IMG/VR virus record: IMGVR_UViG_3300025162_000041
Location: 18,908-82,907 of that record
Strand: one strand, 5' to 3'
DNA from: a virus
Length of the DNA: 64,000 nt
Position numbers and translations under genes: made by a program. Below are positions 7,901-56,839 of the stretch, in pieces. The notes below the pieces were generated by a model that was not told the DNA's origin, made no database searches, and saw nothing but the letters and a program-made list of their open reading frames with translations. Each line of letters opens with the position of its first letter. Positions within the stretch are counted from its first letter, which is position 1.

Positions 7901-10762
7901 CTTAAGGAAAATGACAGTTTAATGCCATTTTATAGAAAATTAAGTCCTGAAAAGGGTGGAATGAATAAATATGAAATGGTGTATAATCCACGGTCTAATA
8001 AACATGAATATACGCATCGGGTTGTTGCGGAATCCTGCGGAATAAAAACCGACAAAACGAATAGAATTTTACACCACAAAAATTTTAATAAATATGACAA
8101 TTCGCCCATAAACTTAGTTCCGATGGAGTTTTTTGAACACCGCAATCTTCATTCTGAACATTGTATTAAAACTCTACACACCCCAGAAGTCATTGAAAAA
8201 AGAAGAAAAAGTTTGGATAAATATCTTCGTTCAAATGATAGGAAAGAAAGACTTAGTAGAGAAATGAAGGGGGTAAAAGTAAAGTATTTTCAAGATTATA
8301 ATAACTCGGACTTACATGCTATCCATAACGAAATACGGTCAAAATTAAAAACTGAAATGTGGGCAGACCCGTCTCGTAGAGCGGTAGCAATCGGAAATAT
8401 GAAGATGGGGTGGACTCCTGAACGCCGAGAGTTAGCGAGTAAGAGAATGAAGGAATTTAGAAAAAATGGAGTTTTAACAAATCATAAAGTAAAATGTATT
8501 GAAATAATAAATGAAAATACTGATGTATACTGTATGACTGTCGTTGGTCCTGGTGGGGAACAGGATAGACACAATTTTGCTATATGCGGAAAGGATATGG
8601 AAGGAAACATAACCAAAACTAGTGGCGTATTTATTAAAAACTGTAAATATGGTGATTTTTTCTTAAAACTATATATTACACCCGAGTATGGTATTTACAT
8701 GGTCGAGCCAATTTCGGCTTACAATGTAGAACGGATTGAAAATTCTGATCCTACTAATAAGCGATATGTCAAGTTCCAACTTCGTCCTTCGGATACATCA
8801 CAGGCTGAAATTCTTGAAAATTATGAAGTAGCTCATTTTCGACTTATTTCCGATTCGAATTTTTTGCCCTACGGCAAGTCGATGATTGAAGGTGGAAGGA
8901 GGGTATGGAAGCAACTTTCACTCATGGAAGACGCTATGCTTATCAGTCGTATCATGCGTGCTCCTGAAAGACGTATTTTCTATACTGATATTGGCAATAT
9001 TCCGCCGAATGAAGTGGACGCTTACATGCAGAAAATGATGGATAAGATGAAGAAAGTGCCATATATTGATGAGCAAACGGGCGAATACAATCTTCGATTT
9101 AACCTTCAGAACATGATTGAGGATTATTATATTCCAGTTCGTGGTGGTGATAGTGGAACTAAGATTGATTCATTACCTGGAATGGAATGGACGGGTATTG
9201 ACGATCTTGAGTATATCAAGACGAAGATGATGGCAGCACTTAAGATTCCAAAAGCCTTTTTAGGATATGACGACGCAATAGCAGGTAAAGCTACTTTGGC
9301 TTGTGTTGTTCCCGAGACACGAGTACCTTTGCTCAACGGACTTACAAAAACAGTAAAAGAACTAATTGATGATTATAACAACGGTATAAAAAATTATGTT
9401 TATTCCATTGATGAAGAAACCAAAAACATTGTTCCGGGTGAAGTAGAATGGGCAGGATTCACTAGAATGGATACTGATGTTGTGCGAGTTTATTTGGATA
9501 ATACACAATATATTGATTGCACTTCTGACCATCGTTTTATGACGAGAGATGGCAATTGGCTGGAAGCCAAGGATTTAGTGGAAGGACAATCATTAATGCC
9601 ATTATATAGAAAAAATCAAATAATGCGTAAAAAACTGGATTATGAAATGGTTTATAATCCCTCTGCGGGGCGACCAAGGGCGGTTAAAAACCATAAAGTA
9701 ATAAAAATAGAACTATTATCCGAAAGAAGAGATACGTGTGACATAACAATAAAAAAGTATCATAACTTTGCAACTTCGGCGGGAGTTATTGTCCACAATT
9801 CGGAGGATGTGCGATTTGCTCGTACTATTCAACGTTTACAACGTATTATTACATCAGAACTTAGCAAGATTGCTATTGTTCATTTATATGCTCAAGGTTA
9901 CCGTGACGAATCGCTTGTTGATTTTGAACTTGAACTGACTAATCCATCGACCATTTTCGAGAAGGAGAAGCTTGAAATTTGGCAGGATAAAGTGAGTGTA
10001 TCCATTGATATGGTAGAGAACAAGTTTTTCTCTTATAAATGGATTTACAAGAATATATTCAATATGTCTGAAGACGACATTGAGCAAGTGCAAGAAGAAG
10101 TTGTTGAAGATGCCAAGCAGCGTTATCGTTTCACCAAGATTGAAGAGGATGGCGATGATCCAGCCAAACCATTCAAGAAGATAGGTGGAAAGGGTGACGG
10201 GGATGATAAAGATAAAGGTGGTCTTGGAGGTCTTGACATTGGTGGTGGAGGCGGTGGTGGAGGCGGTGGTGGAGGCGGTGGGCTTCCAGATCTAGATGAC
10301 CTTGGCGACATTAGCCCCGAAGGTGGGGAAGGAGAAGAAGGTGAGGAGGGAGAGGGCGAAAAAGAAGAAGAACTTCCCGACCTTACGAAAATTAAGGAAG
10401 TTGTAGAAGACACGCGTGATCGCAGTGATAGGGATCAAAGTGACCGAGATCAAAGTGACCGACACCAAGATGGTGAAAAGAAAGCTCCTAATACAACAGA
10501 AGATCCAATTGGTCGTCTTGAACGTTCTGCAACACCAAAGAAAAAGAGCGAGGGAAAGAGAGTTAGTGCCATTCAACATAATTACGAAGGTGGCACTCCA
10601 TTGCGCTTACGTGAGAGAGCATCTCCACCTATAGATAAGGGTATGATTAGTAGTCTTTCTGACTTCCTTAAAAAGACTCAGCCAGAGACCAAACAAGAAC
10701 TCTTGCGAGAGAATCAATTGACGAGAAGCAAGTCTATGTTAGATGAAACTCAATTGCTATAG
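4937..10762 (+). CDS. portal protein (T4 gp20-like) with four inteins
   Basis: Portal motifs EDAMLISRIMRAPERRIFYTDIGN, EDYYIPVRGG and EDVRFARTIQRLQ; about 700 aa after removing the inteins. Confidence 0.95.
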   Translation: MPTNTNMSLKPFDDEILDVKKQSLYARLKRLFSTDVIVRNVGGKQLKIKDTDSIMYATDRNSLRDRFNRIRSTAYNAYTRDFALSYQAARMDLFRDYDCVGPDTIIPLPDGSRPTIKELTEKYKDKPQERFYVFSYDHETDSIKLGRAFHPRKKGGGTREGFKVTFDDGQYVIGSIKHPFLMRNGEYKMIYDLKVGDSVMPFYQKDFYGHGYRHLYNFSRGWQSEHKIVAEQFERPLKENEVVHHRNFNKTNNSPDNLQIMIESEHKAYHCKIIADKLWSPENKQKTINKVQASEGYKNRKCHKWNGERQGGNNPFYGKTHTEESNEKRSKTLKEVFVNRDQNGNKNPKYRKDLTIEVLRIKANEYYKKNGKLTLWGLIKDIGCDYTTIQNRFRYYNCDWDTFKNDVVSTLNHKIKSIESIGQIDVYDVTVEQFANFATDSVFVKNTMDMDPILSCLSGDTCISTLNGFVPIKELAEKYSGDETFKVWSWDKDSQKLTVGNAHHPRKTGTKSVIEVHLDNREVLKCTSDHRIMLVDGTYKEAGQLMSGDSLMPFYHRQNRNGYQEIKSLGKRFKCTHRYIFEDVLTEQDLVGSNIHHKNHNKLDNRLENLELMTALEHMRLHGISPITKGKKSINSKEWWENLEYRTKCSGALKKYQASDEGKKMMSEHTSLINTERWKNDSDYALKMASIFSEHAKSMWSDPVWKEWKRKKHSETMRLKYANDPIFREQIKRVGHENGRYKDLVTTESILIEGTKYNSLVEFARIFDFNGLVFKNDQYKCQFISRRLKEAGYDGWTDYRNKFEYSNHKVTKIVDNNEVVDVYDLTVDIYENFAIKQGIILSNSALDIFSDECLTYNEVGKMITVHSTNNNVKRILENLFDEILNVRFNLWSWTRNMPVKYDSYIPLLSGENIRIDELSKRVKSGEEIWVYSVQDGTNQTVPGKVIWCDKNYISDKTIKVIFDDNSYVETAPEHPFILRDGQEKRAEELKENDSLMPFYRKLSPEKGGMNKYEMVYNPRSNKHEYTHRVVAESCGIKTDKTNRILHHKNFNKYDNSPINLVPMEFFEHRNLHSEHCIKTLHTPEVIEKRRKSLDKYLRSNDRKERLSREMKGVKVKYFQDYNNSDLHAIHNEIRSKLKTEMWADPSRRAVAIGNMKMGWTPERRELASKRMKEFRKNGVLTNHKVKCIEIINENTDVYCMTVVGPGGEQDRHNFAICGKDMEGNITKTSGVFIKNCKYGDFFLKLYITPEYGIYMVEPISAYNVERIENSDPTNKRYVKFQLRPSDTSQAEILENYEVAHFRLISDSNFLPYGKSMIEGGRRVWKQLSLMEDAMLISRIMRAPERRIFYTDIGNIPPNEVDAYMQKMMDKMKKVPYIDEQTGEYNLRFNLQNMIEDYYIPVRGGDSGTKIDSLPGMEWTGIDDLEYIKTKMMAALKIPKAFLGYDDAIAGKATLACVVPETRVPLLNGLTKTVKELIDDYNNGIKNYVYSIDEETKNIVPGEVEWAGFTRMDTDVVRVYLDNTQYIDCTSDHRFMTRDGNWLEAKDLVEGQSLMPLYRKNQIMRKKLDYEMVYNPSAGRPRAVKNHKVIKIELLSERRDTCDITIKKYHNFATSAGVIVHNSEDVRFARTIQRLQRIITSELSKIAIVHLYAQGYRDESLVDFELELTNPSTIFEKEKLEIWQDKVSVSIDMVENKFFSYKWIYKNIFNMSEDDIEQVQEEVVEDAKQRYRFTKIEEDGDDPAKPFKKIGGKGDGDDKDKGGLGGLDIGGGGGGGGGGGGGGLPDLDDLGDISPEGGEGEEGEEGEGEKEEELPDLTKIKEVVEDTRDRSDRDQSDRDQSDRHQDGEKKAPNTTEDPIGRLERSATPKKKSEGKRVSAIQHNYEGGTPLRLRERASPPIDKGMISSLSDFLKKTQPETKQELLRENQLTRSKSMLDETQLL
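5231..6274 (+). mobile_element. portal intein 1 (HNH + NUMOD3, 348 aa)
   Basis: CVGPDT...VYDVTV...VFVKN|T; HNH motif VHHRNFNKTNNSPDNL; NUMOD3-like NPFYGKTHTEES. Confidence 0.9.
6302..7465 (+). mobile_element. portal intein 2 (HNH, 388 aa)
   Basis: CLSGDT...TSDH...VYDLTV...ILSN|S; HNH motif IHHKNHNKLDNRLENL. Confidence 0.9.
7628..8641 (+). mobile_element. portal intein 3 (HNH, N-terminal Pro, 338 aa)
   Basis: Removing PVKYDS...VFIKN restores WSWTRNM|CKYGDFF; block B TAPEHP, block F VYCMTV, HNH motif LHHKNFNKYDNSPINL. Confidence 0.85.
9302..9799 (+). mobile_element. portal intein 4 (mini-intein, 166 aa)
   Basis: CVVPET...TSDH...IVHN|S; endonuclease deleted, with only a YEMVYNP remnant. Confidence 0.9.
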
Positions 10763-13004: not shown

Positions 13005-13883
13005 GTGATACCTTCTCTTAAACGAATTGTAGAGTCCTATGGAGCCGAGGGTCAGTATTATGACCTTGGTAAGGATTTTTCTGCATTTCGTAGAATGATT
13101 GATGGTGCTGATCAGCAAGTCAAGCAGCAATATGAGAAACAAATTGCGTCTAAACTTGTAGGGAAACGTGTTCGGGCAAATGCTTCGCGGGGGTATAAGC
13201 AGTTTATAAAAAGTTATGAGTTTGATGTTGTCCGAGTCACATTGGATGATTACTATGATAACTTTGTAGTAATAGCCTATGATAGTACGACTCCAAAACC
13301 AAAGGAATATTTTCTTAAGACGGGGTTCAAAATTCAGATTCTCGGACCTGCTACAGGGCAACCTTCTCCGCAAAAGGGAGGAGACCCTCGCTTCGAGAAG
13401 CCCAAACAGGTTGGTCCAATGCCCATTCAACCTGGACAGAATCCTAATGTAGCTCAATCACAGCCTATGGCATTAGCACCAGCGGGAGCAACTCCGAAAG
13501 AGACTCCGATGGAAGAAAATAAAGAGCAAGATGGACTTTATGATGCTTATGGAATGGATGAAATTTCTCAAGACATCAAAAGATGGATGCCAAAGCTGCT
13601 TAAGAAGCCAGAAACTCAACTACGTGAGTTTATTAAAGGGCTTGGATGGAAGAAGAATCTCGATAAAGGAACTACGGTGGCATTATTCGATTTAAGAATT
13701 CCTTCCATTATGGTTAAGCCTAACAATAATGAGCAAACCATTCGGGATATGCTTGCACAAGAGAGTGCGAACCCAAGGCCGGGGGAAAAGGCGGGAACAC
13801 GGTATGAATTGGTTAAATGTGAACCCGACCAAGAAAAAGGCGAATGGACTGTTCGCATAAAGAAAGTAATCTCACAAGTATGA
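13005..13883 (+). CDS. hypothetical protein
   Basis: GTG start with RBS aagga; N-terminus IPSLKRIVES; stop overlaps the protease ATG. Confidence 0.65.
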   Translation: MIPSLKRIVESYGAEGQYYDLGKDFSAFRRMIDGADQQVKQQYEKQIASKLVGKRVRANASRGYKQFIKSYEFDVVRVTLDDYYDNFVVIAYDSTTPKPKEYFLKTGFKIQILGPATGQPSPQKGGDPRFEKPKQVGPMPIQPGQNPNVAQSQPMALAPAGATPKETPMEENKEQDGLYDAYGMDEISQDIKRWMPKLLKKPETQLREFIKGLGWKKNLDKGTTVALFDLRIPSIMVKPNNNEQTIRDMLAQESANPRPGEKAGTRYELVKCEPDQEKGEWTVRIKKVISQV

Positions 13884-15619
13884 ATACACAAAAGAAACTC
13901 TTAATGGAATGCATTACGTTTGAAGCAAATCCACGAATGCTTCGAGAGTCAACATTGCATCCTAATCAGCCGTTTACGGTACAGGGGGTTCTGCAACGCA
14001 AAGGCAAAAAAAATCAAAACGGACGTATATATCCCGACGAGATTCTTATTCGTGAAGCCAATAAATATGCTCAGACGTTCATCCAAGACCATCGTGCTAT
14101 GGGGGAATTAGATCATCCAGAATGTTATCGGGTTGGTGCAGAAATATTTACGAATAGTGGATGGAAAGATTTACGAAATGTGGTTGTTGGTGAGTTAATA
14201 CCAACGTTGAATACGGTTACGAATACCATAGAATATAATCCAATTGAGCGAGTTATAAATGAACAATATAACGGTAAAATGGTATCTATTAAAGGAAAAA
14301 ATATAGATATTCTAGTTACTCCAAATCATAGATTTATTCTACAAACTAGATCAGATAGAGAACAACAAGTTATAGAAAAAACTGCCCAAGAAATATTGAA
14401 CATTTCTAAATTAACAAGAAATACACATTTATCCATTCCTATCGTAGCGGAAAATTGGAATGGATATAAGTATGATATCTATAAAATAGATGCTATTAAT
14501 ATTGAGGACATTGCCAATAATCAATCAAAAGATTATAATATTAAACAAACCACGGCACTTAATTTAGATGCCTCAGCATGGTTTTCGTTTCTTGGATTTT
14601 ATTTGGCAGAAGGACATTGTTCGGATAGAACAAATCGGAACGGTTATGAAATATTTATTACGCAAAATAAGGGAGAAATAGCAGATAAGTTTAGAGAAGT
14701 ATTGCATAATTTGAGTTCCGAATTAAAATGGAATGAGTGGGATAAAGGTGATAATGCAATTACGTTTAATACTTCTGATGCCCGTTTATGGACATATCTT
14801 TCCAAATTGGGAACTAAATATACTAAATATATTCCGCAAGATATAAAGAATGCTTCGTCTGAGTTATTGCAAAATTTGTATGATTGGTTTCTTAATGGAG
14901 ATGGTTCAGTGGTCGGAGATTATGAAAGGACATCTATATTTTCTGTATCTAAAAAACTGATGGAAGATTTTTATGATGTTATCCTTAAACTCGGAATGAC
15001 AGGTGTTATTAAAGAACAAATAACAACTGATGATTATATGTTTGCGGGACGATTGATTGAGGCAAAAAATAAATCTCCATTATATCGTTTATGGATTAAA
15101 GAATCAAAAGCAATTCATCTTGATTTCAGGTTTATAAAAATCGAAGAAGTGGATTATGATAGCACTGTTCATTGTGTTACTGTAAAAAATGGAACATTTT
15201 ATTGTCGGGATCATGGATTCCCTTTCTGGTCTGGAAATTCATCGGTTGTCAACCTGAAGAATGTATCCCATAATGTGCTCGAAATGCATTGGAATGGCGA
15301 TGATCTTATGGGAACTATTGAAATTCTTACGACTCCGAATGGCAACATTTTGCGTGAGCTATTTCGCAATGGTATTAAGCTTGGAATTTCAAGTCGTGGA
15401 CTTGGAACACTCAAGAAAATTTCTGAAAGTTCAGCCGTTGTTGGTGATGATTTTGAATTGATTGCGTTTGATTTTGTCTCAAATCCGAGCACTCAAGGAG
15501 CATTTATGTCTCCCGTAGGTCAAATTCCACTTTCCGAGGGTATTGTAAAAGACATGTTTACGGGGAAGTGGGCACGAACCGATGATATAGTAAGAAATAT
15601 CTTGTCCGAATTAAATTGA
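13880..15619 (+). CDS. prohead core protease (T4 gp21-like), intein-containing
   Basis: Motifs NQNGRIYP, GELDHP, LGISSRGLG and FDFVSNPS; ATG at 13880 overlaps the upstream stop (ATGA). Confidence 0.93.
   Translation: MNTQKKLLMECITFEANPRMLRESTLHPNQPFTVQGVLQRKGKKNQNGRIYPDEILIREANKYAQTFIQDHRAMGELDHPECYRVGAEIFTNSGWKDLRNVVVGELIPTLNTVTNTIEYNPIERVINEQYNGKMVSIKGKNIDILVTPNHRFILQTRSDREQQVIEKTAQEILNISKLTRNTHLSIPIVAENWNGYKYDIYKIDAINIEDIANNQSKDYNIKQTTALNLDASAWFSFLGFYLAEGHCSDRTNRNGYEIFITQNKGEIADKFREVLHNLSSELKWNEWDKGDNAITFNTSDARLWTYLSKLGTKYTKYIPQDIKNASSELLQNLYDWFLNGDGSVVGDYERTSIFSVSKKLMEDFYDVILKLGMTGVIKEQITTDDYMFAGRLIEAKNKSPLYRLWIKESKAIHLDFRFIKIEEVDYDSTVHCVTVKNGTFYCRDHGFPFWSGNSSVVNLKNVSHNVLEMHWNGDDLMGTIEILTTPNGNILRELFRNGIKLGISSRGLGTLKKISESSAVVGDDFELIAFDFVSNPSTQGAFMSPVGQIPLSEGIVKDMFTGKWARTDDIVRNILSELN
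14123..15238 (+). mobile_element. LAGLIDADG intein in prohead protease (372 aa)
   Basis: DHPE|CYRVGAE...TPNH...VHCVTV...WSGN|S; motifs GFYLAEG and FLNGDG. Confidence 0.92.
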
Positions 15620-15643
15620 CATTTTGACTTTGTTGCGATATAG
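15615..15643 (+). promoter_or_regulatory. sigma70-like promoter of endonuclease gene
   Basis: TTGACA-17 nt-TATAGT. Confidence 0.6.
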
Positions 15644-15665
15644 TATAAGCAATAAAGTCAAAATT

Positions 15666-17366
15666 ATGGATATAGAAAATTTAAAGCAATGGATAGCAAA
15701 TAATTTACAATATTCGCGTGGATTAATTTGTAAAAAGTGTAAGCGAGAATGGTTTGAGAAATATGGATTTATAGATCAGTGGGATCGGATTCATGTTGCT
15801 ACACAATTTCTAGATAATCTTTTGCCGACCTTTCCTCAGAGGGTATGGCACATTGTAAATGACAGTCTAACAGTTAAATGCAACAATCCTTCCTGTCAAA
15901 ATACGCCACAATTTTGGTCATTTAATGTTGGATATCTTCGGACATGTTCTAATTCGTGTGCTCAATATGACCCCAATACTATTAACAAAATACAGGCAAC
16001 TAATCTCAAAAAATATGGGTGCAAATATGGATTGGAGAACAGAGATATTATATTGAAGCGGGAAGTTACTATGGGTAAAAAATATGGAGTAGAGAATATT
16101 TCTCAAGTCGATGGAATATCCGAAAAAAAACAAGAGACTTGTTTAAAGAATTATGGATCGAAATGGTTTTTAGAAAGAAGTGATTTAATTAAAAAATGCA
16201 TTAATAATAAATATGGAGTGGATAATGTACAACAAGTAACGGAAATAGCAGATAAATCTTCCTGTACAAAAATGGATAATTTTTATGAGTTATTATTGGA
16301 ATCGACTCGGTTTGAAGGGAAGGTAACTCCATCTTTTTCGAAAGAAGAATACAATGGAACTTGCAGAAAATATAAATTTATATGTAATGTATGTAAATTG
16401 GAATTTGAGTATGAGTTGCGATGGGACAGGATTCCTCGGTGTCCAGTATGTTATAAAAGTTCATCAGTCTTTGAAAAAGATGTAAGCGAATATGTAAAAT
16501 CAATTTTGCCAACCGCAAGTGTTATAGAGAATACAAAGTCAGTGTTAGCAAACAATTATGAATTGGATATCTATATTCCGTCTAAAAATATTGCTATAGA
16601 ATGTAACGGATTATTTTGGCATGGAGAGGTTGGTGGGAACAAGAATAAGAATTATCATTTGTTAAAAACAATAGAATGTGAATCTAAAGGAATACATTTA
16701 ATTCATATATTTGAAGACGAATGGAACAATAAAAATCTTATTATAAAAGAAAAATTGAAATATATAATTGGAAATATTAAACCCATCTCGGTTTATGCGC
16801 GAAAATGTAAAATTATAAATGTATTTATTTCTGATAAAAAAGAATTTCTAAACCAAAATCATATACAGGGAAATGATACTTCCAAAATACATATAGGATT
16901 GGAATGGGAAAGCAAGTTGGTATCGGTAATGACATTTTCGTCTAAGCGATGTTTTATTGGATATAAGAATAAAACTAAGAACGATGAAGAATTTGAATTG
17001 TGTAGATATACATCATTGAGTGGACATAGTGTAATAGGAGGGGCGTCAAAATTACTATCATATTTTATAAAAACGTATTGTCCCAAGAAAATAATATCAT
17101 ATGCCGATAGAAGATGGACATATAGCAAAGACAATTTATATGAGAAAATAGGATTCGAGAAGGTATCGGACGGGACTCCTAATTATTGGTATTTCGGACG
17201 GGATGGAAATTATAGACGACTTCATAGATTTGGATTTAGAAAGAATGTTCTTTCCAAGAGGTTGGCGATATTTGATTCTAATCTGACAGAATGGGAAAAT
17301 ATGCAATTGAATGGATGGGATAGAATATGGGATTGCGGAAGTTTAAAATACGAAATGGCTGTTTAG
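15666..17366 (+). CDS. Hef-like free-standing homing endonuclease (repeats + Zn finger + Vsr/PD-(D/E)xK + GNAT-like C-terminus)
   Basis: KKYG repeats, ELDIYIP..NIAIECNG.FWH, IHIFEDEW, SYADRRW and RIWDCG. Confidence 0.75.
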   Translation: MDIENLKQWIANNLQYSRGLICKKCKREWFEKYGFIDQWDRIHVATQFLDNLLPTFPQRVWHIVNDSLTVKCNNPSCQNTPQFWSFNVGYLRTCSNSCAQYDPNTINKIQATNLKKYGCKYGLENRDIILKREVTMGKKYGVENISQVDGISEKKQETCLKNYGSKWFLERSDLIKKCINNKYGVDNVQQVTEIADKSSCTKMDNFYELLLESTRFEGKVTPSFSKEEYNGTCRKYKFICNVCKLEFEYELRWDRIPRCPVCYKSSSVFEKDVSEYVKSILPTASVIENTKSVLANNYELDIYIPSKNIAIECNGLFWHGEVGGNKNKNYHLLKTIECESKGIHLIHIFEDEWNNKNLIIKEKLKYIIGNIKPISVYARKCKIINVFISDKKEFLNQNHIQGNDTSKIHIGLEWESKLVSVMTFSSKRCFIGYKNKTKNDEEFELCRYTSLSGHSVIGGASKLLSYFIKTYCPKKIISYADRRWTYSKDNLYEKIGFEKVSDGTPNYWYFGRDGNYRRLHRFGFRKNVLSKRLAIFDSNLTEWENMQLNGWDRIWDCGSLKYEMAV

Positions 17367-17377
17367 AGCATATTTAT

Positions 17378-17666
17378 CTTTTAGGGAGCAGAAAACTCCT
17401 TGGTCTTCAGCCAAGGAGATGAATGCGACCCACAAATATAATTAGCTGACTTCTTCTGTGTCATAATATATATTGGTAATATGATTGAATAAGAGACGAT
17501 AACCAAGTCTCACAACACAATCGAAAAATAATTTTCTGGTTAAGAAACCAGATAACGGTCGGAACGACCGTATAAGCCGTCTGTCTTGACATAAGACTTT
17601 GTTAGAAATAACGAAGCAGTTGATTGGGTCGGAAACACCTACGTCTTTAGCGTAGGGGTAGTTCAT
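17378..17666 (+). mobile_element. ORF-less IS605 mini-element (promoter + omega-RNA-like scaffold)
   Basis: TTAT target, AAAA guide and left-end hairpin; CTGACT-17-TATATT promoter; acggtcggaacgaccgt hairpin; right end GAAA-hairpin-gtagtTCAT. Confidence 0.82.
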
Positions 17667-17673: not shown

Positions 17674-18501
17674 ATGAATAATATCAAAACATTTCTGAAA
17701 CAATGCATTGCAGAAGTATTGGTTGAGCCAGCAAAGCAATTCAATCGTCTGCAAGGAAAGAAAATGCGTTCACTGATAAAGCAGTGTATCGCAGAAGTTA
17801 TAATTGAGCCTGTTTCACGTAAGATGAAGGTATATGGAAATCCTAAGCGTCTTCAAATGGCTCACTTAATTAAAGAATGCGTAATGGAGGTTTTGAAAGA
17901 AAACCTATTGTCCGAAATTTTCGATCCTCAATCTCAAGGTCCAAATATGGTGGAAGAAAATCCGTATCCAGCGATGAATGCCAAGATGCGGATGATGGAC
18001 GAGCAAGAAAATAAGCCCAAAGAAGATGCGTGGACAAGATATGAAAAAGGATATGATGCTGGTCAAGTCCATAAGAGAAGTGGTATAAAGCCAGAAGGTC
18101 CGATGGATTCCGTAACTTCGGTTGGTTATCATGATGCACTCAAAGGAAAGGCTAAATCTTCTCCCGAAGTTGTTCGAAAGACTATTAAAGAAACCGAACC
18201 CCAGGGGCGTTACTCCAAACAAATAGGGGTAACTCCATCTCAGTCTTCTAGCGATACAAATATTGCGGAATATGAAAACTATCTCAAGGAAGCAAGTCGT
18301 ACACAATCTACCAGTATTCATTGGACTTGTCCGCATTGTGGAAAATTGACTAATATTGATGTTGAAATTGAATCTTCCTCTGATTATATTGCTTGTGCCG
18401 ACTGTGAGCATTGCGGCAAAGAAATCAATAGTCCAAAGTTAGATCAACAAATTTATAAAACCGTTGTCGATCATTGTTCTAGTCAACAACCCCTACCCTA
18501 A
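17674..18501 (+). CDS. hypothetical protein with 3x IKQCIAEV-type repeats and C-terminal Zn ribbon
   Basis: CPHCG...CEHCG; the last codons derive from the IS end at 18482. Confidence 0.7.
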   Translation: MNNIKTFLKQCIAEVLVEPAKQFNRLQGKKMRSLIKQCIAEVIIEPVSRKMKVYGNPKRLQMAHLIKECVMEVLKENLLSEIFDPQSQGPNMVEENPYPAMNAKMRMMDEQENKPKEDAWTRYEKGYDAGQVHKRSGIKPEGPMDSVTSVGYHDALKGKAKSSPEVVRKTIKETEPQGRYSKQIGVTPSQSSSDTNIAEYENYLKEASRTQSTSIHWTCPHCGKLTNIDVEIESSSDYIACADCEHCGKEINSPKLDQQIYKTVVDHCSSQQPLP

Positions 18502-18516
18502 AGGGATAGGGGCTTG
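18482..18516 (-). mobile_element. solo IS605 right end
   Basis: Minus strand reads CAAG-cccctatccctttagggtagggg-ttgtTGAC; the hairpin is identical to that at 1356-1378. Confidence 0.75.
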
Positions 18517-18598
18517 TAATACTTCTCTACTAAAGGCAGGATGCAATTATTTGATACTTGACTTCGTATCCACCTGTGTTATATTGGTGGCGAAAATC

Positions 18599-20601: not shown

Positions 20602-22230
20602 CTATGGATTAGTCCATTCATACTTCAAACTTCCACAGTCCCATATTCTATCCCATCCATTCAACTGCATATTTTCCCATTCAGTAAGTATCGGGTCAAA
20701 TGTTTGTAATTTTTTGGAAAGTTCTGTTTTTCTGAATGCAAATCTATGAAATCGTTTTTGATAATTGTGTTTATTTATATACCAATAATTTGGAACTCCA
20801 TCCGATACCTTTTGAAACCCAATTTTTTCATAGAGATTTCCTTTGCTCCATCGTCGGTCCGCATATGATACAATTTTGCGGGGGCTGTATTTTTTGATAA
20901 AATATGATAAGAGTTTTCCAGCTATTCCAACAACATTTTTTGATGTGGCAAATCGTATAAGTTCATATGTGTCATTGAAATGAGATTTTTTATATCCCAT
21001 AATTTTTCTTAATTTTCCAAAAGTCATTACCGAAACTAATTCGGAATTATAATATGCTCCGATATGAATGGATGATTTATCGGAGCCTTGAATATGATAC
21101 ATATTTAGAAATTGACATCCGTCGGGAAATGATATTTCTCGCAATGTACATTTTCTAGCATAAATCGAATTTTCTATAGATATATTGAGAATATGAGATA
21201 ATTTTCTTTTAACTATCTCCTTTTTATTTATCCATTCGTCTTCAAATATTTGAATTAGATAAATCCCTCTATCTTTACATTTTTCCGTTTTATTTAAATG
21301 ATATAATTTCGATTTTCCGCCAGCAATTTCGGAATGATAATAGTTCCCATTTAGTTCTATTGCTATTTTTTCCTTGGGCAAATAAATATCTATCTCAAAT
21401 TTATTATCAAATTCTTTCCTGCAATTAAATCTTATAATTCCATTGTATATCTTTTGTATGAATTCTTTTAATTCATTTTCTATTTGAGAACGAGGCATTG
21501 GATTACATTTATAGCACTGAACACCTATGTAATTATTCTCAAATTCGTTTCCGCATTTTGTACATTTAAACTGATACAATTTCCCTTTGTTGAATCCTAT
21601 GAATTCAGTTTGAGAAAATTGAGGAATAATTGATGTATTTTCAAGAAGTTTATCGTATATTTTTTTACACCAAGTCATAGATGTTTTTCGGGAAATTTCG
21701 GGCAACATCATTGGGTGTATTACTCCGTATTTCTTTACATTATTTTGATGGGTGTTATTTTTTACTGTTTCGGACGATTTACTATATTCCAATCCATATT
21801 TTATCAGATTGGTTTGTTTTATTTTTTCAATGATTGATGGCAGTCGAAAAACATTATCTACGCCGTATTTGTCCAAACATCCTTGTTTAGATCTCGTTTG
21901 TATCTCGGAAGATGACATTGCTTCGATAGTTCCAAATTTCTGAAGACATGTTTTTTGAACCCGCCTTCTTATTTCAGGAGATAATCCAGCGTTGGTTACC
22001 CCATAGGTTTTCATTGTTGAATTTTCCCGTTTTTTTACAATACATTTTTTGCCACAACACGTGTCAATTTCGGACTCGGAATTTCGACGAGCCATGAATA
22101 TTTTCTCCGAGGATTTTTCAAATATAATGCCACAGATGTCACACTTTGCTATAATAATTCGGCTGGAAAATTTCCCTGTGGAATTCGGGTCGATGTTGTA
22201 CTTTCGAATTGTTTCTTCGTGTAAAATCAT
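20602..22230 (-). CDS. Hef-like homing endonuclease
   Basis: Paralog of 15666: EIDIYLP, IAIELNG, IFEDEW, SYADRRWS and RIWDCG; own TTGACA-16-TATACT promoter. Confidence 0.75.
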   Translation of the reverse strand: MILHEETIRKYNIDPNSTGKFSSRIIIAKCDICGIIFEKSSEKIFMARRNSESEIDTCCGKKCIVKKRENSTMKTYGVTNAGLSPEIRRRVQKTCLQKFGTIEAMSSSEIQTRSKQGCLDKYGVDNVFRLPSIIEKIKQTNLIKYGLEYSKSSETVKNNTHQNNVKKYGVIHPMMLPEISRKTSMTWCKKIYDKLLENTSIIPQFSQTEFIGFNKGKLYQFKCTKCGNEFENNYIGVQCYKCNPMPRSQIENELKEFIQKIYNGIIRFNCRKEFDNKFEIDIYLPKEKIAIELNGNYYHSEIAGGKSKLYHLNKTEKCKDRGIYLIQIFEDEWINKKEIVKRKLSHILNISIENSIYARKCTLREISFPDGCQFLNMYHIQGSDKSSIHIGAYYNSELVSVMTFGKLRKIMGYKKSHFNDTYELIRFATSKNVVGIAGKLLSYFIKKYSPRKIVSYADRRWSKGNLYEKIGFQKVSDGVPNYWYINKHNYQKRFHRFAFRKTELSKKLQTFDPILTEWENMQLNGWDRIWDCGSLKYEWTNP

Positions 22231-23239: not shown

Positions 23240-23935
23240 TTACTTCTCTTCTCCATCTTCGGCTCCTTCTGGTTGGCCTTCTTCTTCCGCCGATTCATAT
23301 TTAGAAAATGCGGTCCAGCAAAATTGATTTCCTTCTTTTACTTTCTTAATTACAGTAGTAGTGTTTTTTCCGAAGTCATCGGTCATTTCATATTTCAATA
23401 AGAACTTATCACTACTTGTAGGTTTCTCATGCGAAAGTCCAAGTTTAGCTAGAAACCTAATTAAAATATTAGCTCCTTCAGTTTCATTAATAAAGGTAAT
23501 GCTTTTTTGAATACGAATTTTGTCATCTATAGTTGTCTCATCATCCTCGGATGGTTCGTTGGCAGCAGTATTGGATGGAGTTGATTGCATTGGCTGAGCT
23601 GGTTGCATTGGCTGGGCTGTTTGGGCGGGAGGATATGATGCTAACTCGGTTACTAATGCCTGCCGTTCCTTCGGTGTCATTTCAATACCACGACATTGAT
23701 TTACATAGCTATCAAAATCTGCGTTGGTATCAAATGTCTTAGCAATTACGTTTGGTTGTGGACGAGAATCTCCGCCTGTAAATTCATTTTCGGATACTGA
23801 TAGATTTCCGCTTGCTGGAATATCAGTTTCTCCACCAATACATCCTTCTTTGAATTTTCGTAAGCCAACAAGAAGCTTACGCTTCTGATCTTCACTCATT
23901 TGTTCTTTTAATGCTCTCAGCCGCTTGATGTTCAT
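23240..23935 (-). CDS. hypothetical protein
   Basis: 231-aa ORF; its start codon abuts a mini-element left end. Confidence 0.65.
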   Translation of the reverse strand: MNIKRLRALKEQMSEDQKRKLLVGLRKFKEGCIGGETDIPASGNLSVSENEFTGGDSRPQPNVIAKTFDTNADFDSYVNQCRGIEMTPKERQALVTELASYPPAQTAQPMQPAQPMQSTPSNTAANEPSEDDETTIDDKIRIQKSITFINETEGANILIRFLAKLGLSHEKPTSSDKFLLKYEMTDDFGKNTTTVIKKVKEGNQFCWTAFSKYESAEEEGQPEGAEDGEEK

Positions 23936-24332
23936 GTTTTTCCTTTCGTTGCGGAAACCCCTATCCCTTTAGGGTAGGGGATGAGCAACGAAATATAATT
24001 GATAATTTCTGTTGACATGTTTCTTAGTTCCTGTTATATATATCACAGTTCTTTGGTATATAGTTTGGATAGCAGAAAATAATTGCTTCTATCCAGTAAA
24101 ATCAATCAAGCATCGTTTTTGTGAATAGACCAGAAGGCACTCCGCTTGCGGAGGAACCGTTATGTAGGGTCTTTGACTCACAATCAACATCCTCCTCGTT
24201 GCCCGTTAAGGGCAAGCTGGAAGGCAGGCCACGGTCAATTGGCCAATCGTCTGTAAATCTTTCTTGAATTATGTTAAGCATAAGCATTAGAGTCTGGCAA
24301 GCCCCGACCCTTCAGGGTCGCGGGTAGTTGAC
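23936..24332 (+). mobile_element. ORF-less IS605 mini-element encoding a structured omega-RNA-like ncRNA
   Basis: TCAT target; left-end GAAA and hairpin; TTGACA-17-TATATA promoter; right end CAAG-ccccgaccc ttca gggtcgcggg-tagtTGAC; homologous to 56401-56756. Confidence 0.82.
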
Positions 24333-24563
24333 AATCACTCTATAAGTATGACTGTCTAACTGCGGAATGCACATACAGACAGGAATTGCTCTTCGTGTAT
24401 ATAAATATCTGCGAATTTTTGTATCATTTTAATTTTCGATACTATTTATATTCTGTAATGCCGCAATCTTTTGCCGCTAATTGACCTACCAAGGTCTTCG
24501 TTTTAATAACCTTCATTAAAGCTTCAATAGCTTTAGATTCCAAAAATAAGGAAAAATATAATT

Positions 24564-42062: not shown

Positions 42063-42168
42063 ATACCTTAAAAATTTGTCTATCCTATAAATATAAATTG
42101 CCGCTATCAATCGGCAATAATAAAATAACTTGATGTTTTATTGTTTTTGACTTATATTGAAAGGTAAT

Positions 42169-43941
42169 ATGCGAAAACCCAATACGGATGAACTTATTAG
42201 TATTATATATCAGAATAAATGTCATTACAGGTCAATAATCAAATCTAAGTTTCCAGAATTACATCTGTTTATAGAAACTGAATATTATGGGAATTCGTTC
42301 GGGGAAAAGTTATATAGATGGATACACGAAAACTCGGCGGGGGGTGTGTGTAAAGTTTGTCAATCTTCAACCAGGTTCAAAAGTATTTTTGATGGATTCC
42401 AAACATATTGCTCATCGAGGTGTTCCAATGGAGATATTATAGTTAAACAACTCAAAGAAGATTCTTATTTGAAGAATTGGGGGGTTAAAAATCCATCTCA
42501 AGCAGAAAAAATTAAAGGGAAGAAAAAACAAACTTGCGAGAAACACTTTGGAGTTGATTGCAATTTGAAATTGGGTTCGTGTAAATTACAAATCAAAGAA
42601 ACAAATCGACAAAAATATGGAGTTGATTATCCTCTTCAAAATCAAAGTATATTAGAAAAACAACAGGATACCAATCTGCAACGATATGGGAAACGATCTG
42701 TCGGTCAAGTAGAAGAATTTAAAACGAAAGCAATTCAAACAAACCTGAGTAAATTCGGAGTAGAGCATCCGATTCAAAACAAAGAAATACACGCAAAACT
42801 AGAAGAAACAAATCTAAAACGGTTCGGAGTTAGGCATATGGCCCAAAGTGATAAATATAGAATTGAAAGGCGAAGAAGATTTTTTGAAACATTATTGCAT
42901 TCCGATAGGTTAAAATCCAGAGTTACTCCGATGTTTGTCTTAGCGGATTTTATCGACTGTAATACTAAAAATAAGTATGATTTCAAATGCAATACATGTG
43001 CAAATGTGTTTCAAGATCATTTGGACAATGGACGAATTCCAAGGTGTTATAAATGTTATCCGCTGCTTTATCAGTCTTTTGCCGAAAGAGAAATAGCCGA
43101 TTTTATACGCAATTCTATAGCCGATAAAATAGTTGAAAACGATAGGTCTGCGCTTGGAAATTTGGAATTGGATATTTATATTCCGTCCAGAAATTTGGCA
43201 ATAGAATTCAACGGATTATATTGGCACAGTGAATTGGGAGGTAATAAAAATAAAGATTATCATCTCAATAAAACTGTAAGATGTCAATCGAAAGGAATAA
43301 GACTTATTCAGATATTTGAAGATGAATGGTTACAAAAACAAGACATAGTAAAAAAACGACTTGCTCATTTGTTGGAACTGGACATGTCCAGAATATATGC
43401 CAGAAACTGCGTTATTATTCCCATTCCTAACGTTCTTTGTGCCGAGTTCTTAGAGAAAAATCATTTGCAAGGAAAAGATAATTCTACTATAAAATTAGGA
43501 GCATATTATAATAGCGAATTGGTTTCGCTTATGACATTCGGCAAACATAGATTTTCAAAGAATAAAGATGTTTGGGAAATGTATCGTTTTTGTTCGTCTA
43601 AAAATGTGGTTGGAATAGGAGGAAAATTGTTTAAATATTTTGTGAAAAATTATAATCCCAACCAGGTTATTTCCTATGCCGATAGAAGATGGTCGTCGAA
43701 TATTGCGTTTTATGAAAAAATTGGATTTCAATCCGAAGGAATGACTCGGCAAGGTTATTATTATATGGACGACTATCGGAATCGATATTATAGATTTAAC
43801 TTTAGAAAATCAGTATTATCTAAAAAATTAAAAGTATATGATTCTAATTTAACCGAATGGGAGAATATGCAATTAAATGGATACGACCGAATATGGGATT
43901 GCGGAAATTTGAGATATAAATGGACTCCACATAACTTTTAA
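42169..43941 (+). CDS. Hef-like homing endonuclease
   Basis: Paralog of 15666 and 20602: ELDIYIP, LAIEFNG, SYADRRWS and RIWDCG; promoter TTGATG-17-TATATT. Confidence 0.75.
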   Translation: MRKPNTDELISIIYQNKCHYRSIIKSKFPELHLFIETEYYGNSFGEKLYRWIHENSAGGVCKVCQSSTRFKSIFDGFQTYCSSRCSNGDIIVKQLKEDSYLKNWGVKNPSQAEKIKGKKKQTCEKHFGVDCNLKLGSCKLQIKETNRQKYGVDYPLQNQSILEKQQDTNLQRYGKRSVGQVEEFKTKAIQTNLSKFGVEHPIQNKEIHAKLEETNLKRFGVRHMAQSDKYRIERRRRFFETLLHSDRLKSRVTPMFVLADFIDCNTKNKYDFKCNTCANVFQDHLDNGRIPRCYKCYPLLYQSFAEREIADFIRNSIADKIVENDRSALGNLELDIYIPSRNLAIEFNGLYWHSELGGNKNKDYHLNKTVRCQSKGIRLIQIFEDEWLQKQDIVKKRLAHLLELDMSRIYARNCVIIPIPNVLCAEFLEKNHLQGKDNSTIKLGAYYNSELVSLMTFGKHRFSKNKDVWEMYRFCSSKNVVGIGGKLFKYFVKNYNPNQVISYADRRWSSNIAFYEKIGFQSEGMTRQGYYYMDDYRNRYYRFNFRKSVLSKKLKVYDSNLTEWENMQLNGYDRIWDCGNLRYKWTPHNF

Positions 43942-44004: not shown

Positions 44005-45203
44005 AACATGAATAGCAACCCAAACATCCAAAGACCAATATATATATATAAGGGAACTCCCTTCAAAGTATTTTGGAGTTGTTCGGACATTTGGGCCTGC
44101 TTCTCAAGTTGATTGAATCTTCCTGCCGCCTCCAATTGTTCTTTCAAAGTATCCAAAAGTCGTTCTTTTGACTGTTGCGCCTCTGCCCGAAGTTCTGCTC
44201 CATCCAATGTTATCTCTCCCCCAGGAATCGGTATTACTTGATGCTTTTGACGAATTGCGCCAAGGATTTCTTTACAGTTAGCGAGGAAATAATCACGAAT
44301 CCATTGTTTACCTGGGTCATTAATAGTCATGTATGGATGATTTACATACGGAATATCAGCAAAGTCGGAGGAAACCTGCCCCGCAGACCCCGAAGGTGAA
44401 AGACTGCTTGCTTCGTAGCGATCTTGTTCATTAATGTATTCGAGCCATAGTTTGAAACTGGTGGTTGGAATAGGCATGAGCCGAAGGCGGTTGTTTGCCA
44501 TTTCAAACGAATAGGCCGACTTGCGAACTAAGTCATTGAACTGAATGGCCTGACCACGAAGTAAATCCTCAAAGATTGGTGTCATTAAGAATTGAACGGC
44601 GGGGCTATAAGCTCCAAATCCAAGTTCTTGTAAAACATTACTATATGACATTCCCGTCATGGAGAATGGGTCATATATACGCGCAAATGCTGGAGGTCGG
44701 TAATGGAACACTCGTTTTACTTCAATGCGGTCACAGTTTTCCAATGTGTTACCAATTAATGCTTGGAGGTCATAATCTTGTTGCATTGGGTTGACTTGGA
44801 TATTTACCTTTTTCCAGTCAAGTTTTCCACCTGTTCCTGCTTCGGAGCCATAATCTTTAGCAATGTTGATAAGTTGCGGGAGGCCAGACCCTTGGATTAC
44901 TCGTCCAGTGATAGTTGTATTTCGGTTAAGTCCTTGGAGCGCCAGCATGTTATTGATCATGTTGTACTCGTTGACTTTGGCATTATAAACATTACAAGCT
45001 TCTTCGAATGCAGCATAGAATTGAATATCGATCATTTCTATAGCAATTGAGGGCCATCCGAGTCGTTTTGTAGCCCACTGCATAGCGTTATAACAATCTC
45101 GTTGGAAGATAGGATCAGAATCATACATTCCAAACGGAGTATTATTTTGGACTGCCGACCCACTGCCTGGGTATCGTATTAAAGCTTGATTTGAGATTGA
45201 CAT
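44001..45203 (-). CDS. neck protein (gp13-like head-tail adaptor)
   Basis: RLGWP..IE, WIRDY.LA..KE.LG..R.K and IPGG...LDG motifs. Confidence 0.8.
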   Translation of the reverse strand: MSISNQALIRYPGSGSAVQNNTPFGMYDSDPIFQRDCYNAMQWATKRLGWPSIAIEMIDIQFYAAFEEACNVYNAKVNEYNMINNMLALQGLNRNTTITGRVIQGSGLPQLINIAKDYGSEAGTGGKLDWKKVNIQVNPMQQDYDLQALIGNTLENCDRIEVKRVFHYRPPAFARIYDPFSMTGMSYSNVLQELGFGAYSPAVQFLMTPIFEDLLRGQAIQFNDLVRKSAYSFEMANNRLRLMPIPTTSFKLWLEYINEQDRYEASSLSPSGSAGQVSSDFADIPYVNHPYMTINDPGKQWIRDYFLANCKEILGAIRQKHQVIPIPGGEITLDGAELRAEAQQSKERLLDTLKEQLEAAGRFNQLEKQAQMSEQLQNTLKGVPLYIYIGLWMFGLLFML

Positions 45204-46093
45204 TTTTTGTATTTTTTTATAGGAAATGGCAATGATTTGTCACGTTTCCATTGGTTCCAATCACTTTCCCATATATAATAAATATCATATCCCATTTCCT
45301 TTAACTTAATAAACTTATTTGTTGTAGATTGGTACAGATTGCCGAAGGAAGTTTTATTGGAATTATTCGTTTCCTCGGGCAAAAATATTTTCGGATTCCC
45401 GTGCCAATAATCTCCCAAGAATTCAAATATTTTATTTTTACTTATACCATCGACTTTATATGGTCTGATATATTTTTGTCTATGTTCGGGGGTAGAAGGA
45501 ATGTTTAGATAATCCAAAAATTCTATTTCGGGCATGGAGATATTATTTCGGGCAAAACAAGAGGGGCACTTTGGAATTTTGCCATCTTCTATATTAGAAT
45601 TAAAATGTGTGTGGCAAGTTGTGCATTCAAATAGGTATAAATCATTTACCGTTTTAAAGTCGTGCGGGTCAAACATAGGTTTGAGTGAAAAATTCAACCG
45701 AGACCCGTTGAATAATCGTTCAACAAATTGTTTGGTTCTTGTGTTCAAAATCTTCAATTGAACATTTTTGTTCTGAATAGGATGCTCTGCTCCATAGTGT
45801 TGTAAACATGTTTTATTGGCCAAAATTCGATTGTTATAGTTTGAGTTATTGTATTTTTGTAATTTTGTTAATTTACTTTTTTCTTTTACGGAATTGAGTT
45901 TGAATGGATTATCGACTCCATGTTTTTCTAGACATGTTTTTTTGGTTTTTTCGGCCCTGGCTTTTAATCGGTCGGGAGTCCAAAAAGATTTCATTTTATC
46001 CGAAAACGCTGTTGTTTTGGAATAATGATTAACGCCATATTTTTCCATACAGGTCTTTTCTTTTTTGGACAGCATTTCGGTTATATTTTCCAT
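45179..46093 (-). CDS. Vsr-like/PD-(D/E)xK endonuclease, putative homing endonuclease
   Basis: KYG repeats, Zn finger, VDG...FEFLGDYWHG...IWESDW; promoter TTGATT-17-TATAAT. Confidence 0.7.
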   Translation of the reverse strand: MENITEMLSKKEKTCMEKYGVNHYSKTTAFSDKMKSFWTPDRLKARAEKTKKTCLEKHGVDNPFKLNSVKEKSKLTKLQKYNNSNYNNRILANKTCLQHYGAEHPIQNKNVQLKILNTRTKQFVERLFNGSRLNFSLKPMFDPHDFKTVNDLYLFECTTCHTHFNSNIEDGKIPKCPSCFARNNISMPEIEFLDYLNIPSTPEHRQKYIRPYKVDGISKNKIFEFLGDYWHGNPKIFLPEETNNSNKTSFGNLYQSTTNKFIKLKEMGYDIYYIWESDWNQWKRDKSLPFPIKKYKKCQSQIKL

Positions 46094-46219
46094 AATATCT
46101 CTAATTATAATTATGATCAACCAAATAATCAATTATTTTTAATTTGAGTGGATATATTTAAATTTTATATTTATACTCGTCTAGTGTCCTGTATATGATG
46201 AGGATACGTATCAATTCAA

Positions 46220-56372: not shown

Positions 56373-56400
56373 ACAATCACTTATATTTATACTTATATGC

Positions 56401-56756: not shown

Positions 56757-56839
56757 ATGAAATTATTTTCAAAAGAAATTCTGGCGGTATGATGCCGTTA
56801 AGAAACAATGCAAGAATGCTTTAGAGAGGATATAAAAAA

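Follow-up and report, generated by a model that had tools for sequence, protein, structure and literature searches.

The DNA analysed here (hereafter the window) is a stretch of 64,000 nucleotides corresponding to bases 18908-82907 of the 82,907-bp IMG/VR virus record IMGVR_UViG_3300025162_000041. Pairwise alignment and a repeat finder identify in it two copies of the same element in inverted orientation, copy A at 23936-24332 on the plus strand and copy B at 56401-56756 on the minus strand. The record is 23% complete according to CheckV, which implies a genome of several hundred kb, and encodes a gp23-type major capsid protein, an intein-containing prohead protease and several DUF7487/HNH homing endonucleases. 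The DNA runs containing the stretch come from freshwater and lake metagenomes of 6 studies. The setting is, as far as the sequence tells, a giant T4-like freshwater phage with a gp23-type capsid. We present evidence that each copy is probably a complete miniature (mini) IS200/IS605 element of about 360-400 bp, which lacks tnpB, resembles the palindrome-associated transposable elements (PATEs), and carries its own putative promoter and a predicted guide RNA of the TnpB type (omegaRNA).

The main form of the element exhibits a constant order of parts. A TTCAT is followed by a left-end hairpin, by TTGACA and TATAnn separated by 16 or 17 nt, by 6-7 nt, by an invariant AGTTCTTTG, by a hairpin-rich stretch of about 250-290 nt, and by the 3' end AAGCCCC-hairpin-GGG, to which (T/C)AGTTGAC is appended. 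The limits of the element are exactly the coordinates given above, from the first base past TTCAT to the final base of ...GTAGTTGAC. In copy A, the target, or transposon-adjacent motif, TTCAT (23931-23935, plus strand as all features of this copy) adjoins the left end and reads ATGAA on the minus strand, where it is the start of a 231-aa open reading frame (ORF; 23935-23240). The left end (LE, 23936-23992) contains a subterminal hairpin (23946-23990) and matches the LE of two full-length TnpB elements described below (L128 and L129). Its first 11 nt, from 23936, read AAAGGAAAAAC on the minus strand, a Shine-Dalgarno sequence for the abutting gene. The predicted promoter (24012-24040) consists of TTGACA (24012-24017), a 17-nt spacer and TATATA (24035-24040).

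The putative omegaRNA scaffold of copy A (24047-24332, 286 nt) has its predicted start at A24047. It opens with a 5' hairpin (24052-24110) that is near-invariant between copies and has no counterpart outside the mini elements. In the variable middle domain (24119-24183), RNAalifold places AGACC/GGUCU within an outer UUGUGA/UCACAA, and CUCCGC/GCGGAG within both. Hairpin 3 (24191-24224), composed of a lower stem, an internal loop and a tetraloop-capped upper stem, lies directly 5' of the pseudoknot hairpin (24227-24244, GGCCA-CGGUCAAU-UGGCC), whose loop GUCAAU (24234-24239) is paired with GUUGAC (24327-24332). Helix H5 (24249-24298) joins GUC (24249-24251) with GGC (24296-24298) and closes a variable hairpin. 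The right end (RE, 24302-24332) is a hairpin (24302-24324) followed by UAGUUGAC, position 24332 being the last base of the element. The predicted guide is the 3' flank (24333-24352), whose reverse complement is the native signal upstream of the 231-aa gene. This assignment follows the rule for TnpB, given in the main text of Meers et al. (PMC10055086), that the guide is taken from the flank 3' of the RE.

Copy B repeats this anatomy on the minus strand. Its target TTCAT (56757-56761) reads as an ATGAA that opens an ORF of 11 codons only, and its left end (56700-56756) forms the hairpin with a degenerate complement of the Shine-Dalgarno sequence (GAGAAAATAT). The predicted promoter (56659-56687; TTGACA, 17-nt spacer, TATATT) was recovered by a promoter scan with 11/12 matches; the same scan missed the TATATA of copy A because its rule requires a T at position 6. 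The scaffold (56401-56652, 252 nt) has a middle of a different type (B-type) and a 3' core at 56401-56479, and the predicted guide (56381-56400) includes a phage TATAAATA/TATTTATA promoter-like motif. The interior of copy A contains only a 61-aa bottom-strand ORF, no ORF is common to the A and B types, and 1-nt indels occur between A-type copies. The element is non-coding.

Between the two copies the repeat finder delimits three blocks: 23975-24118 against 56581-56724 (144 nt, 88%), 24288-24332 against 56401-56445 (45 nt, 91%), and 23946-23978 against 56716-56748 (33 nt, 94%). From AGTTCTTTG to CATCGTTT only 2 positions differ. The copies also have in common the 3' motif CAGGCnACnGTCAAnnnGCCAATCGTC and the right end, and their middles cannot be aligned in sequence. 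The original prediction, that two copies share a near-identical 5' block, a 3' motif and a right end, is confirmed by the alignment and the repeat finder, and its claim of diverged middles that keep hairpins at matching positions inside UUG...CAA arms is reproduced by RNAalifold for both the A and the B types. It had taken the whole for an RNA gene; such a gene is present, but the whole is a mini transposon with left end, promoter, RNA and right end. Its likening of AGTTCTTTG to a boxA antitermination element finds no support. In the predicted fold, the CUUUGR part of this sequence base-pairs with AUCAAG to form the foot of the 5' hairpin, and no other likeness to a nut site was seen, no scoring of nut sites having been made.

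The relationship to TnpB is established by two full-length elements from related phage fragments, the genes of which (L128, 393-400 aa; L129, 398 aa) belong to the TnpB family by Pfam. These elements agree with the mini elements in TTCAT, in the kind of LE hairpin, and in the RE hairpin with GTAGTTGAC. TTCAT is present 5' of the element in 9/9 mini copies examined, as well as in L128, L129 and a further mini copy, L146 (see below). Sequence similarity between mini and full-length elements is confined to the LE (32 nt, 75-91% identity) and the last 117-134 nt; the mini middle exhibits no similarity to the full-length elements. Within the 3' portion, GGCAGGCCACGGTCAATTGGCCAATCGTCTGTAAATCTT of copy A aligns with the codons for GQATVNSPIVCKSS in L128 and L129. 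The matching ends and the homology of the core thus identify the copies as protein-less derivatives of this TnpB transposon family. The RNA lies on the tnpB strand and continues past the RE into flanking DNA, the same arrangement as in a TnpB omegaRNA. Both related phage fragments, G001 and G002, carry mini elements together with one full-length TnpB each of the matching clade. In an alignment of L129 with the PDB chain 8hr5_A, three RuvC-like motifs read as intact (IGVDLG, VLENL, HADINAA), and L128, L129 and L055 have no cysteines in the stretch aligned to the cysteine-bearing segment of that chain. We take the former to be the catalytic positions and the latter to be the zinc finger, as in TnpB/Cas12f.

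The 3'-terminal 110-135 nt or so of the RNA are homologous to the omegaRNA that full-length TnpB genes contain within the 3' end of their coding region. The proposed descent from a TnpB omegaRNA is borne out by this core, which matches the omegaRNA overlapping the C-terminal codons (GQATVNSPIVCKSS). Four full-length elements fold in the same helix order, including a two-tier hairpin, located within the coding region and immediately 5' of the pseudoknot hairpin, that corresponds to hairpin 3 of the mini elements. In the latter, hairpin 3 changes freely in sequence and keeps its pairing, with loops GUAA, GCAA, UUCG, GUUA and GUCA. In this respect the RNA is no longer bound by the code. The release from coding constraint that had been postulated for the entire RNA stands for hairpin 3 and the core, but not for the 5' ~125-175 nt, for which no full-length counterpart was detected.

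The structure of the core is supported by covariation. Of 23 distinct cores assembled, 22 entered the alignment (9 from mini elements, 10 at the 3' ends of TnpB matches and 3 unassigned), L068 being omitted as a near-duplicate of L048; two rows (L034 and L125) are one column off in the stem and were counted as unpaired. The model comprises a 5-bp hairpin GGCNN/NNGCC, its loop GUCAAY paired with the terminal GUUGAC in a pseudoknot, and the 3-bp H5 closing a variable hairpin. Over its 14 pairs (307 cells), 96.1% of the cells are paired, against a maximum of 48.9% in slid controls. Cells changed on both sides number 34, compared with 10.8 in shuffles, and the covariation score of 0.309 (0.126 when shuffled) was reached by 0/500 shuffles. 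Four pair types occur at each of the two inner stem pairs; one pseudoknot pair is U.G in 14 and C-G in 8 sequences, one H5 pair is found in three Watson-Crick types plus a G.U, and one H5 pair is U-A in 12 sequences and U.G in 10. In the divergent mini copy L130 both pseudoknot strands differ and still pair. The compensatory hairpin changes first seen between the two window copies are extended by retained pairing in further copies.

A covariance model of the core (R1) was run on the window and on loci L013-L111, together 100 of the 147 sources. It scores 90.8 bits for copy A (24223-24332) and 78.2 bits for copy B, values that arise by construction because both are rows of the model. On 3' ends of TnpB matches outside its training set it scores 44-61 bits, and on right ends linked to IscB about 31-35 bits. 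The window also contains a stub at 18482-18562 (minus strand) with an L129-type right end (…GGGGTTGTTGAC) and about 50 nt of omegaRNA core; R1 gives it 40.3 bits, and the HEARO model 24.5 bits on the plus strand.

In total, 13 distinct copies of the mini element were found, 3 in this record, 4 elsewhere in IMG/VR, 5 in metagenomes and 1 on a contig of a metagenome-assembled genome (MAG), with different flanks in all of them. The likeness of the two window copies is therefore not due to chance. Copy C, on the minus strand, is found right at the beginning of the 83-kb record, where the contig end truncates it. An exact-word scan of IMG/VR gave 10 matches, of which 4 are true copies, L004 and L010 on one 78-kb contig and L008 and L011 on one 42-kb contig. 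The metagenome contigs gave 9 matches, corresponding to 5 new copies and 4 repeats of IMG/VR contigs. A distant-mode blastn search of copy A against a phage GenBank collection returned no match. The only match in a bacterial genome is the contig of L146 (CAIPBY010000069.1, 2224 bp), which was binned in a Candidatus Buchananbacteria MAG and contains a complete mini element whose middle domain is of a third type. This contig is either a mis-binned phage piece or a hint of the host, and is too short for naming one. The middle is A-type in seven copies (A, C, L004, L008, L010, L132 and L136) and B-type in four (B, L011, L135 and L138); L130, a short and divergent form, and L146, the third type, are the remaining two. 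Two contigs start within a copy and another has copies close to both of its ends, suggesting that the assemblies broke on the repeat. In the contigs of 3 of 4 freshwater runs, pieces of the element have a coverage several-fold that of the flanks and lead into several distinct ones.

The 5' part of the RNA, about 125-175 nt, is peculiar to the mini elements. With the first 175 nt as query, nhmmer returned no match from about 130 loci other than mini elements, nor from the rest of the record. RNAalifold predicts a long, near-invariant hairpin, then a variable structured domain closed by the UUG...CAA arms, the contents of which differ between the A, B and L146 types. L130, misaligned in the full mini alignment, was omitted from the A-type and B-type structure alignments. 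Changes on both sides are observed at 7/86 predicted pairs among six A-type sequences and at 5/73 pairs among four B-type sequences. The 5' hairpin has remained near-invariant while the promoters, spacers and ends of the copies diverged, and AGTTCTTTG is invariant in 11 aligned copies as well as in copy C and L146.

In 13/13 copies TTGACA is unchanged and the -10 hexamer reads TATAnn. The spacer sequences drift, those of L130 and L132 having almost nothing in common with that of copy A. From these hexamers we infer a sigma70-type promoter that would drive a stand-alone RNA. A terminator-like hairpin is located 150 nt past copy A. As for the strand, at 38 of 115 distinct loci with the RE motif a TnpB gene terminates immediately upstream in the same orientation, and the alifold energy is lower on the promoter strand in 3/3 alignments. 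G.U cells outnumber A.C cells by 39/4, 35/3 and 26/3 in structures predicted on that same strand, and the hairpin-3 loops GUAA, GCAA and UUCG, read on it, were counted as strand support. These data favour a structured RNA on the strand originally named, behind a promoter of the sigma70 type.

The insertion sites exhibit a marked relation to genes. On the bottom strand (opposite to the RNA), the ATG of the target opens an ORF of 61-269 aa in 7 of the 9 copies with a known left flank; in the other two (B and L132) it opens only 11 and 23 codons. By comparison, 71 of the 323 TTCAT sites in the record open such an ORF (binomial P = 6e-4, the copies being not fully independent). The seven gene-abutting copies retain a purine-rich AAAG(G/A)AAAA Shine-Dalgarno sequence, AAAGGAAAA in six and AAAGAAAAA in L011, and this sequence is degenerate in the two copies without a gene. 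On the bottom strand the guide flanks read as a native Shine-Dalgarno sequence or a TATTTATA-like promoter motif. These flank signals place the element between the gene's own signals and its ATG. Motifs resembling TATAAATA/TATTTATA are found about 8-20 nt before start codons, at 24399-24406, at 56385-56392 (minus strand) and before several ATGs of related loci; we take them to resemble late promoters of the T4 type.

Several properties of the abutting genes were recorded. One of the ORFs begins with MKKILVTGGAGYIGS, a start that we assume to be typical of Rossmann-fold epimerases. Pfam and PHROGs searches gave no match for the neighbour proteins of 231, 107, 166 and 117 aa. The duplication of a larger unit, gene plus RNA, was considered and rejected: the neighbour ORFs of copies A and C are not homologous (BLASTP E = 2.2). 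Distant relatives of the 231-aa gene (7 loci, 42-69% protein identity) have the gene without the element. The starts that were read are ATGAA in L139 and L144 and ATGAT in L142 and L143; G001 and G002 lack this gene.

Taken together, these data probably identify a non-autonomous, PATE-type mini element of a TTCAT-targeting TnpB family, with a promoter-driven stand-alone omegaRNA that would be used in trans. We propose the following scheme. Host RNA polymerase would transcribe the RNA from the sigma70-type promoter near the LE. The transcript would comprise, in order, the 5' hairpin, the variable domain, the core (hairpin 3, pseudoknot hairpin, H5, RE hairpin and UAGUUGAC), and a guide from the flank. 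A TnpB of the L128/L129 clade, supplied by a full-length element elsewhere in the phage genome, would load this RNA in trans. The complex would then cut TTCAT joined to the guide sequence, that is, the empty allele created by excision or brought by a co-infecting relative, and recombinational repair would restore or spread the mini element. Insertions at ATGAA start codons may survive because the left end gives the displaced gene a new ribosome-binding site. Two published observations bear on this scheme: the main text of Meers et al. (PMC10055086) describes PATEs that "often encode omegaRNAs" on which TnpB must act in trans, together with a homing model, and an omegaRNA supplied in trans armed the CboIStron TnpB experimentally (10.1101/2023.11.20.567912).

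A number of observations weigh against this interpretation. An empty target was not seen: no uninterrupted allele exists among the loci compared, the related loci being too distant and no joined-flank search having been made, and contigs of 4 DNA runs contain no joint of TTCAT with a guide. The flanks of the other copies have no match among the remaining loci compared. The three contig joints listed are hairpin-to-hairpin junctions of look-alike LE and RE with sides of 20-28 nt. No near match of either guide occurs next to a TTCAT elsewhere in the record. The 83-kb record contains no TnpB of the matching clade, its two TnpB genes belonging to other families. A Y1 TnpA (PF01797) was not found in G000, G001 or G002, fragments that are 12-23% complete; this absence says little since all three phage pieces are fragmentary. 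None of the sequencing runs listed as containing the stretch is an RNA run. With respect to the RNA, the 5' hairpin is without covariation support because it hardly varies, and in L011 it exhibits one A.C, which the opposite strand would turn into a G.U. For the mini-specific part, covariation was assessed on 6 and 4 close relatives, the very sequences from which the structures had been predicted. Single-sequence folding z-scores on the promoter strand are modest (-2.56 for copy A and -4.40 for copy B), and those of the other strand (-2.25 and -2.94) are little worse. Finally, the abutting gene of 7/9 copies requires a transcript of the bottom strand as its leader.

This last requirement is shared by an explanation placing the functional RNA on the opposite strand, namely an omegaRNA of the IscB/IsrB type (HEARO) with a 5' guide, acting as leader of the downstream gene. 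At gathering thresholds Rfam finds no match in the whole window, hence no intron. In a permissive search its sole match is HEARO (RF02033), on the opposite strand in both copies, with 30.0 bits (E = 2e-4) at 56401-56494 (plus) and 19.9 bits at 24253-24332 (minus). Moreover, the RE motif is upstream of IscB genes at other loci. Searched as a gapped pattern, it occurs in at least 116 IMG/VR stretches (L013-L126 among them), with 115 distinct loci among the matches listed. A TnpB gene ends just upstream on the same strand at 38 of these 115, a TnpB match is on the opposite strand at 2, and an IscB gene is on the opposite strand at 16, with RRXRR and HNH domains in both of those checked. These counts derive from four TnpB queries and one IscB query, and leave 59 loci without assignment, 29 of them with less than 1500 nt upstream. 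It was also observed that TnpB elements and IscB elements use one and the same RE motif, AAGCCCC-hairpin-GGTAGTTGAC, on opposite strands. About 17 instances among the matches listed have the near-identical hairpin CGCC/CACC-TCT-A/T-T/C-AGG-C/T-GGTGGG, and the 5 that were opened each have an IscB start on the opposite strand. This explanation is nevertheless hardly credible and largely refuted. With 83 bits as the HEARO gathering score, the matches fall far short, and they skip 122-144 of the model's 211 positions. No RRXRR/IscB protein was found in the record, and the downstream ORFs are without such domains. The downstream genes are mutually unrelated (the 231-aa protein, a 269-aa protein and a tail-like protein), the promoter of the element faces the other way, and the G.U pairs would turn into A.C mismatches on the opposite strand. 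A HEARO RNA as leader of the 231-aa ORF was rejected on two grounds: the internal motif is found on the strand that encodes TnpB, and at IscB loci this RE occurs in reverse. The sub-threshold matches are to be expected, since IscB omegaRNAs begin at the same transposon RE read in reverse; according to the main text of Meers et al. (PMC10055086), the region upstream of iscB is bounded by the RE.

Transcription of the bottom strand also enters an alternative in which the element is a domesticated mobile regulatory cassette, providing a ribosome-binding site, an early promoter, and timing by a structured leader or an antisense RNA, with the omegaRNA scaffold as a relic. The position exactly before an ATG in 7/9 copies and a Shine-Dalgarno sequence that is kept with a gene and degenerate without one speak for it. 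The guides are the reverse complement of native Shine-Dalgarno or TATTTATA-like signals, so that a native promoter reads through about 390 nt of the element, and the top- and bottom-strand transcripts would be fully complementary. We consider such a cassette unlikely as the whole explanation: a ribosome-binding site or promoter has no need of the covarying pseudoknot, H5 and hairpin 3, found as in TnpB-linked omegaRNAs, copies B and L132 keep the RNA though serving no gene, and selection against insertions anywhere else would account for the start-codon bias equally well. The regulatory role and the mobile guide RNA element are compatible, and both can be true. It is very unlikely, in our judgement, that the copies are decaying, functionless deletion remnants of TnpB elements hitch-hiking in phage genomes. 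Plain remnants do exist in the record (a tnpB 3' tip at 9650-9870 of the record and the RE stub at 18482-18562 of the window), and no cognate TnpB or TnpA is seen there. However, 13 copies from several metagenome studies have kept the promoter hexamers and the 5' hairpin, with paired changes in four helices. The drift falls in spacers, loops and the middle domain, the indels fall in loops, and two or three scaffold types persist across different phages.

Beyond the non-autonomous mini element with its omegaRNA, a broader possibility may be raised, which we regard as doubtful. The phage lineage may maintain promoter-driven, protein-less omegaRNA cassettes of at least three TnpB families, five in 83 kb, so that a single TnpB gene or a small number of them would acquire many guides. 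Each guide would match a relative's uninterrupted allele, and the set would serve in co-infections as a multi-locus gene drive or an exclusion weapon. The 5' hairpin would then be a new module, required either to load TnpB in trans or to set timing by pairing with the antisense leader of the late gene next to it.

The single 83-kb piece contains cassettes of at least three TnpB families (the A/B pair, 17378-17666 and 51181-51475). The element at 124-1387 (plus strand) is a full-length TnpB element of a different family, with an LE hairpin at about 130-175, a tnpB gene at 200-1375 (domains OrfB_IS605, Cas12f1-like TNB and HTH), and an RE that ends with GGGGAGCATTCAC at 1387. A protein-less mini element of that TnpB family lies at 51181-51475 (minus strand). 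Its LE hairpin is of the same kind, its RE ends in GGGAGCATTCAC, and it retains the last 70 nt or so of its family's omegaRNA region. The protein-less mini element at 17378-17666 (plus strand) represents a third family, its RE having the same ending, GGGTAGTTCAT, as that of the L127 TnpB found in a related phage fragment. Outside the window, the record (C1) contains at 9650-9870 a deletion derivative made of an LE hairpin, the last 25 or so tnpB codons and an RE (…GGGAGTTTTCAC), and at 2987-4054 an intact TnpB gene (355 aa) of a fourth family with the RE …GGGAGCGTCAAT. Other mobile or repeated sequences are present as well. Four paralogous DUF7487 proteins are encoded at 15624-17366 (plus), 20602-22230 (minus), 42157-43941 (plus) and 45179-46132 (minus), with DNA-level repeats between their genes; 20602-22230, the one scanned against PHROGs, matches homing/HNH endonuclease families. 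The prohead core protease gene (13844-15619, plus; Peptidase_S77) is split by an intein with a LAGLIDADG domain. Two tandem Mtd-like genes (61471-62862 and 63018-64000, plus; Mtd second domain), with blocks 72-95% identical, are the kind of target used by diversity-generating retroelements.

Compared with known systems, the mini RNA resembles the omegaRNA (reRNA) of full-length IS605/IS1341-type elements in its position at the RE, its 3' guide, the guide-adjacent pseudoknot and the covarying core. It differs in lying outside a tnpB ORF and in having its own predicted start and new 5' domains. ISDra2 is said to be the studied model of the TnpB omegaRNA, in work attributed to Karvelis (2021), Sasnauskas (2023) and Nakagawa (2023), and the full-length omegaRNA is reportedly cut out of the tnpB mRNA (a finding ascribed to Nety, 2023). 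With HEARO (RF02033) the likeness consists in its first 35 nt or so, which are the reverse complement of the mini RE (GUCAACUACCC-hairpin-GGGGCUUG); the mini elements differ in strand, in scores below threshold, in having no IscB gene and in their internal architecture. The closest relatives are the PATEs of Geobacillus stearothermophilus (PMC10055086), which, as presented in the main text, likewise combine the LE and RE of a family with no ORF, an omegaRNA at the RE and a guide from the flank, and presumably depend on TnpB and TnpA in trans. In contrast to the PATEs of these main-text passages, to which the comparison is confined, the mini elements reside in a giant phage, have their own conserved and consensus-like predicted sigma70 promoter, an extra 125-175-nt 5' RNA and two or three scaffold versions, and are located exactly at start codons, where they would donate a ribosome-binding site. 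A PATE with IStron ends (10.1101/2023.11.20.567912) is also a protein-less derivative of a TnpB element. IStrons neutralise their insertion by group I intron splicing, whereas the mini elements contain no intron and donate a ribosome-binding site at start codons.

PATEs carrying an omegaRNA are in print, and the kind of element is therefore already known; its phage form seen here is unusually well preserved. What is new is at the level of the variant: the giant-phage setting, the private promoter, the extra 5' module, the alternative scaffolds, and the habit of inserting at start codons with a ribosome-binding site. We found no description in the literature of protein-less omegaRNA elements in phages, which is weak evidence, and the Extended Data of Meers et al. 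may hold closer precedents.

If the present interpretation is correct, the mini elements would represent a natural guide RNA that has been uncoupled from the gene of its TnpB nuclease, equipped with its own promoter and multiplied across a viral genome. Such an arrangement would resemble the path proposed to lead from transposon nucleases to the "one effector, many guides" organisation of CRISPR-like systems. The occurrence of the same scaffold inside and outside codons separates the parts of an omegaRNA that are held by structure from those held by the protein code, and the comparison also exposes the conserved extra 5' module. Short self-promoted RNAs, together with a compact TnpB clade without zinc-finger cysteines, may also be of interest to tool builders. 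Donation of a ribosome-binding site would show how elements may colonise gene-dense phage genomes without killing them.

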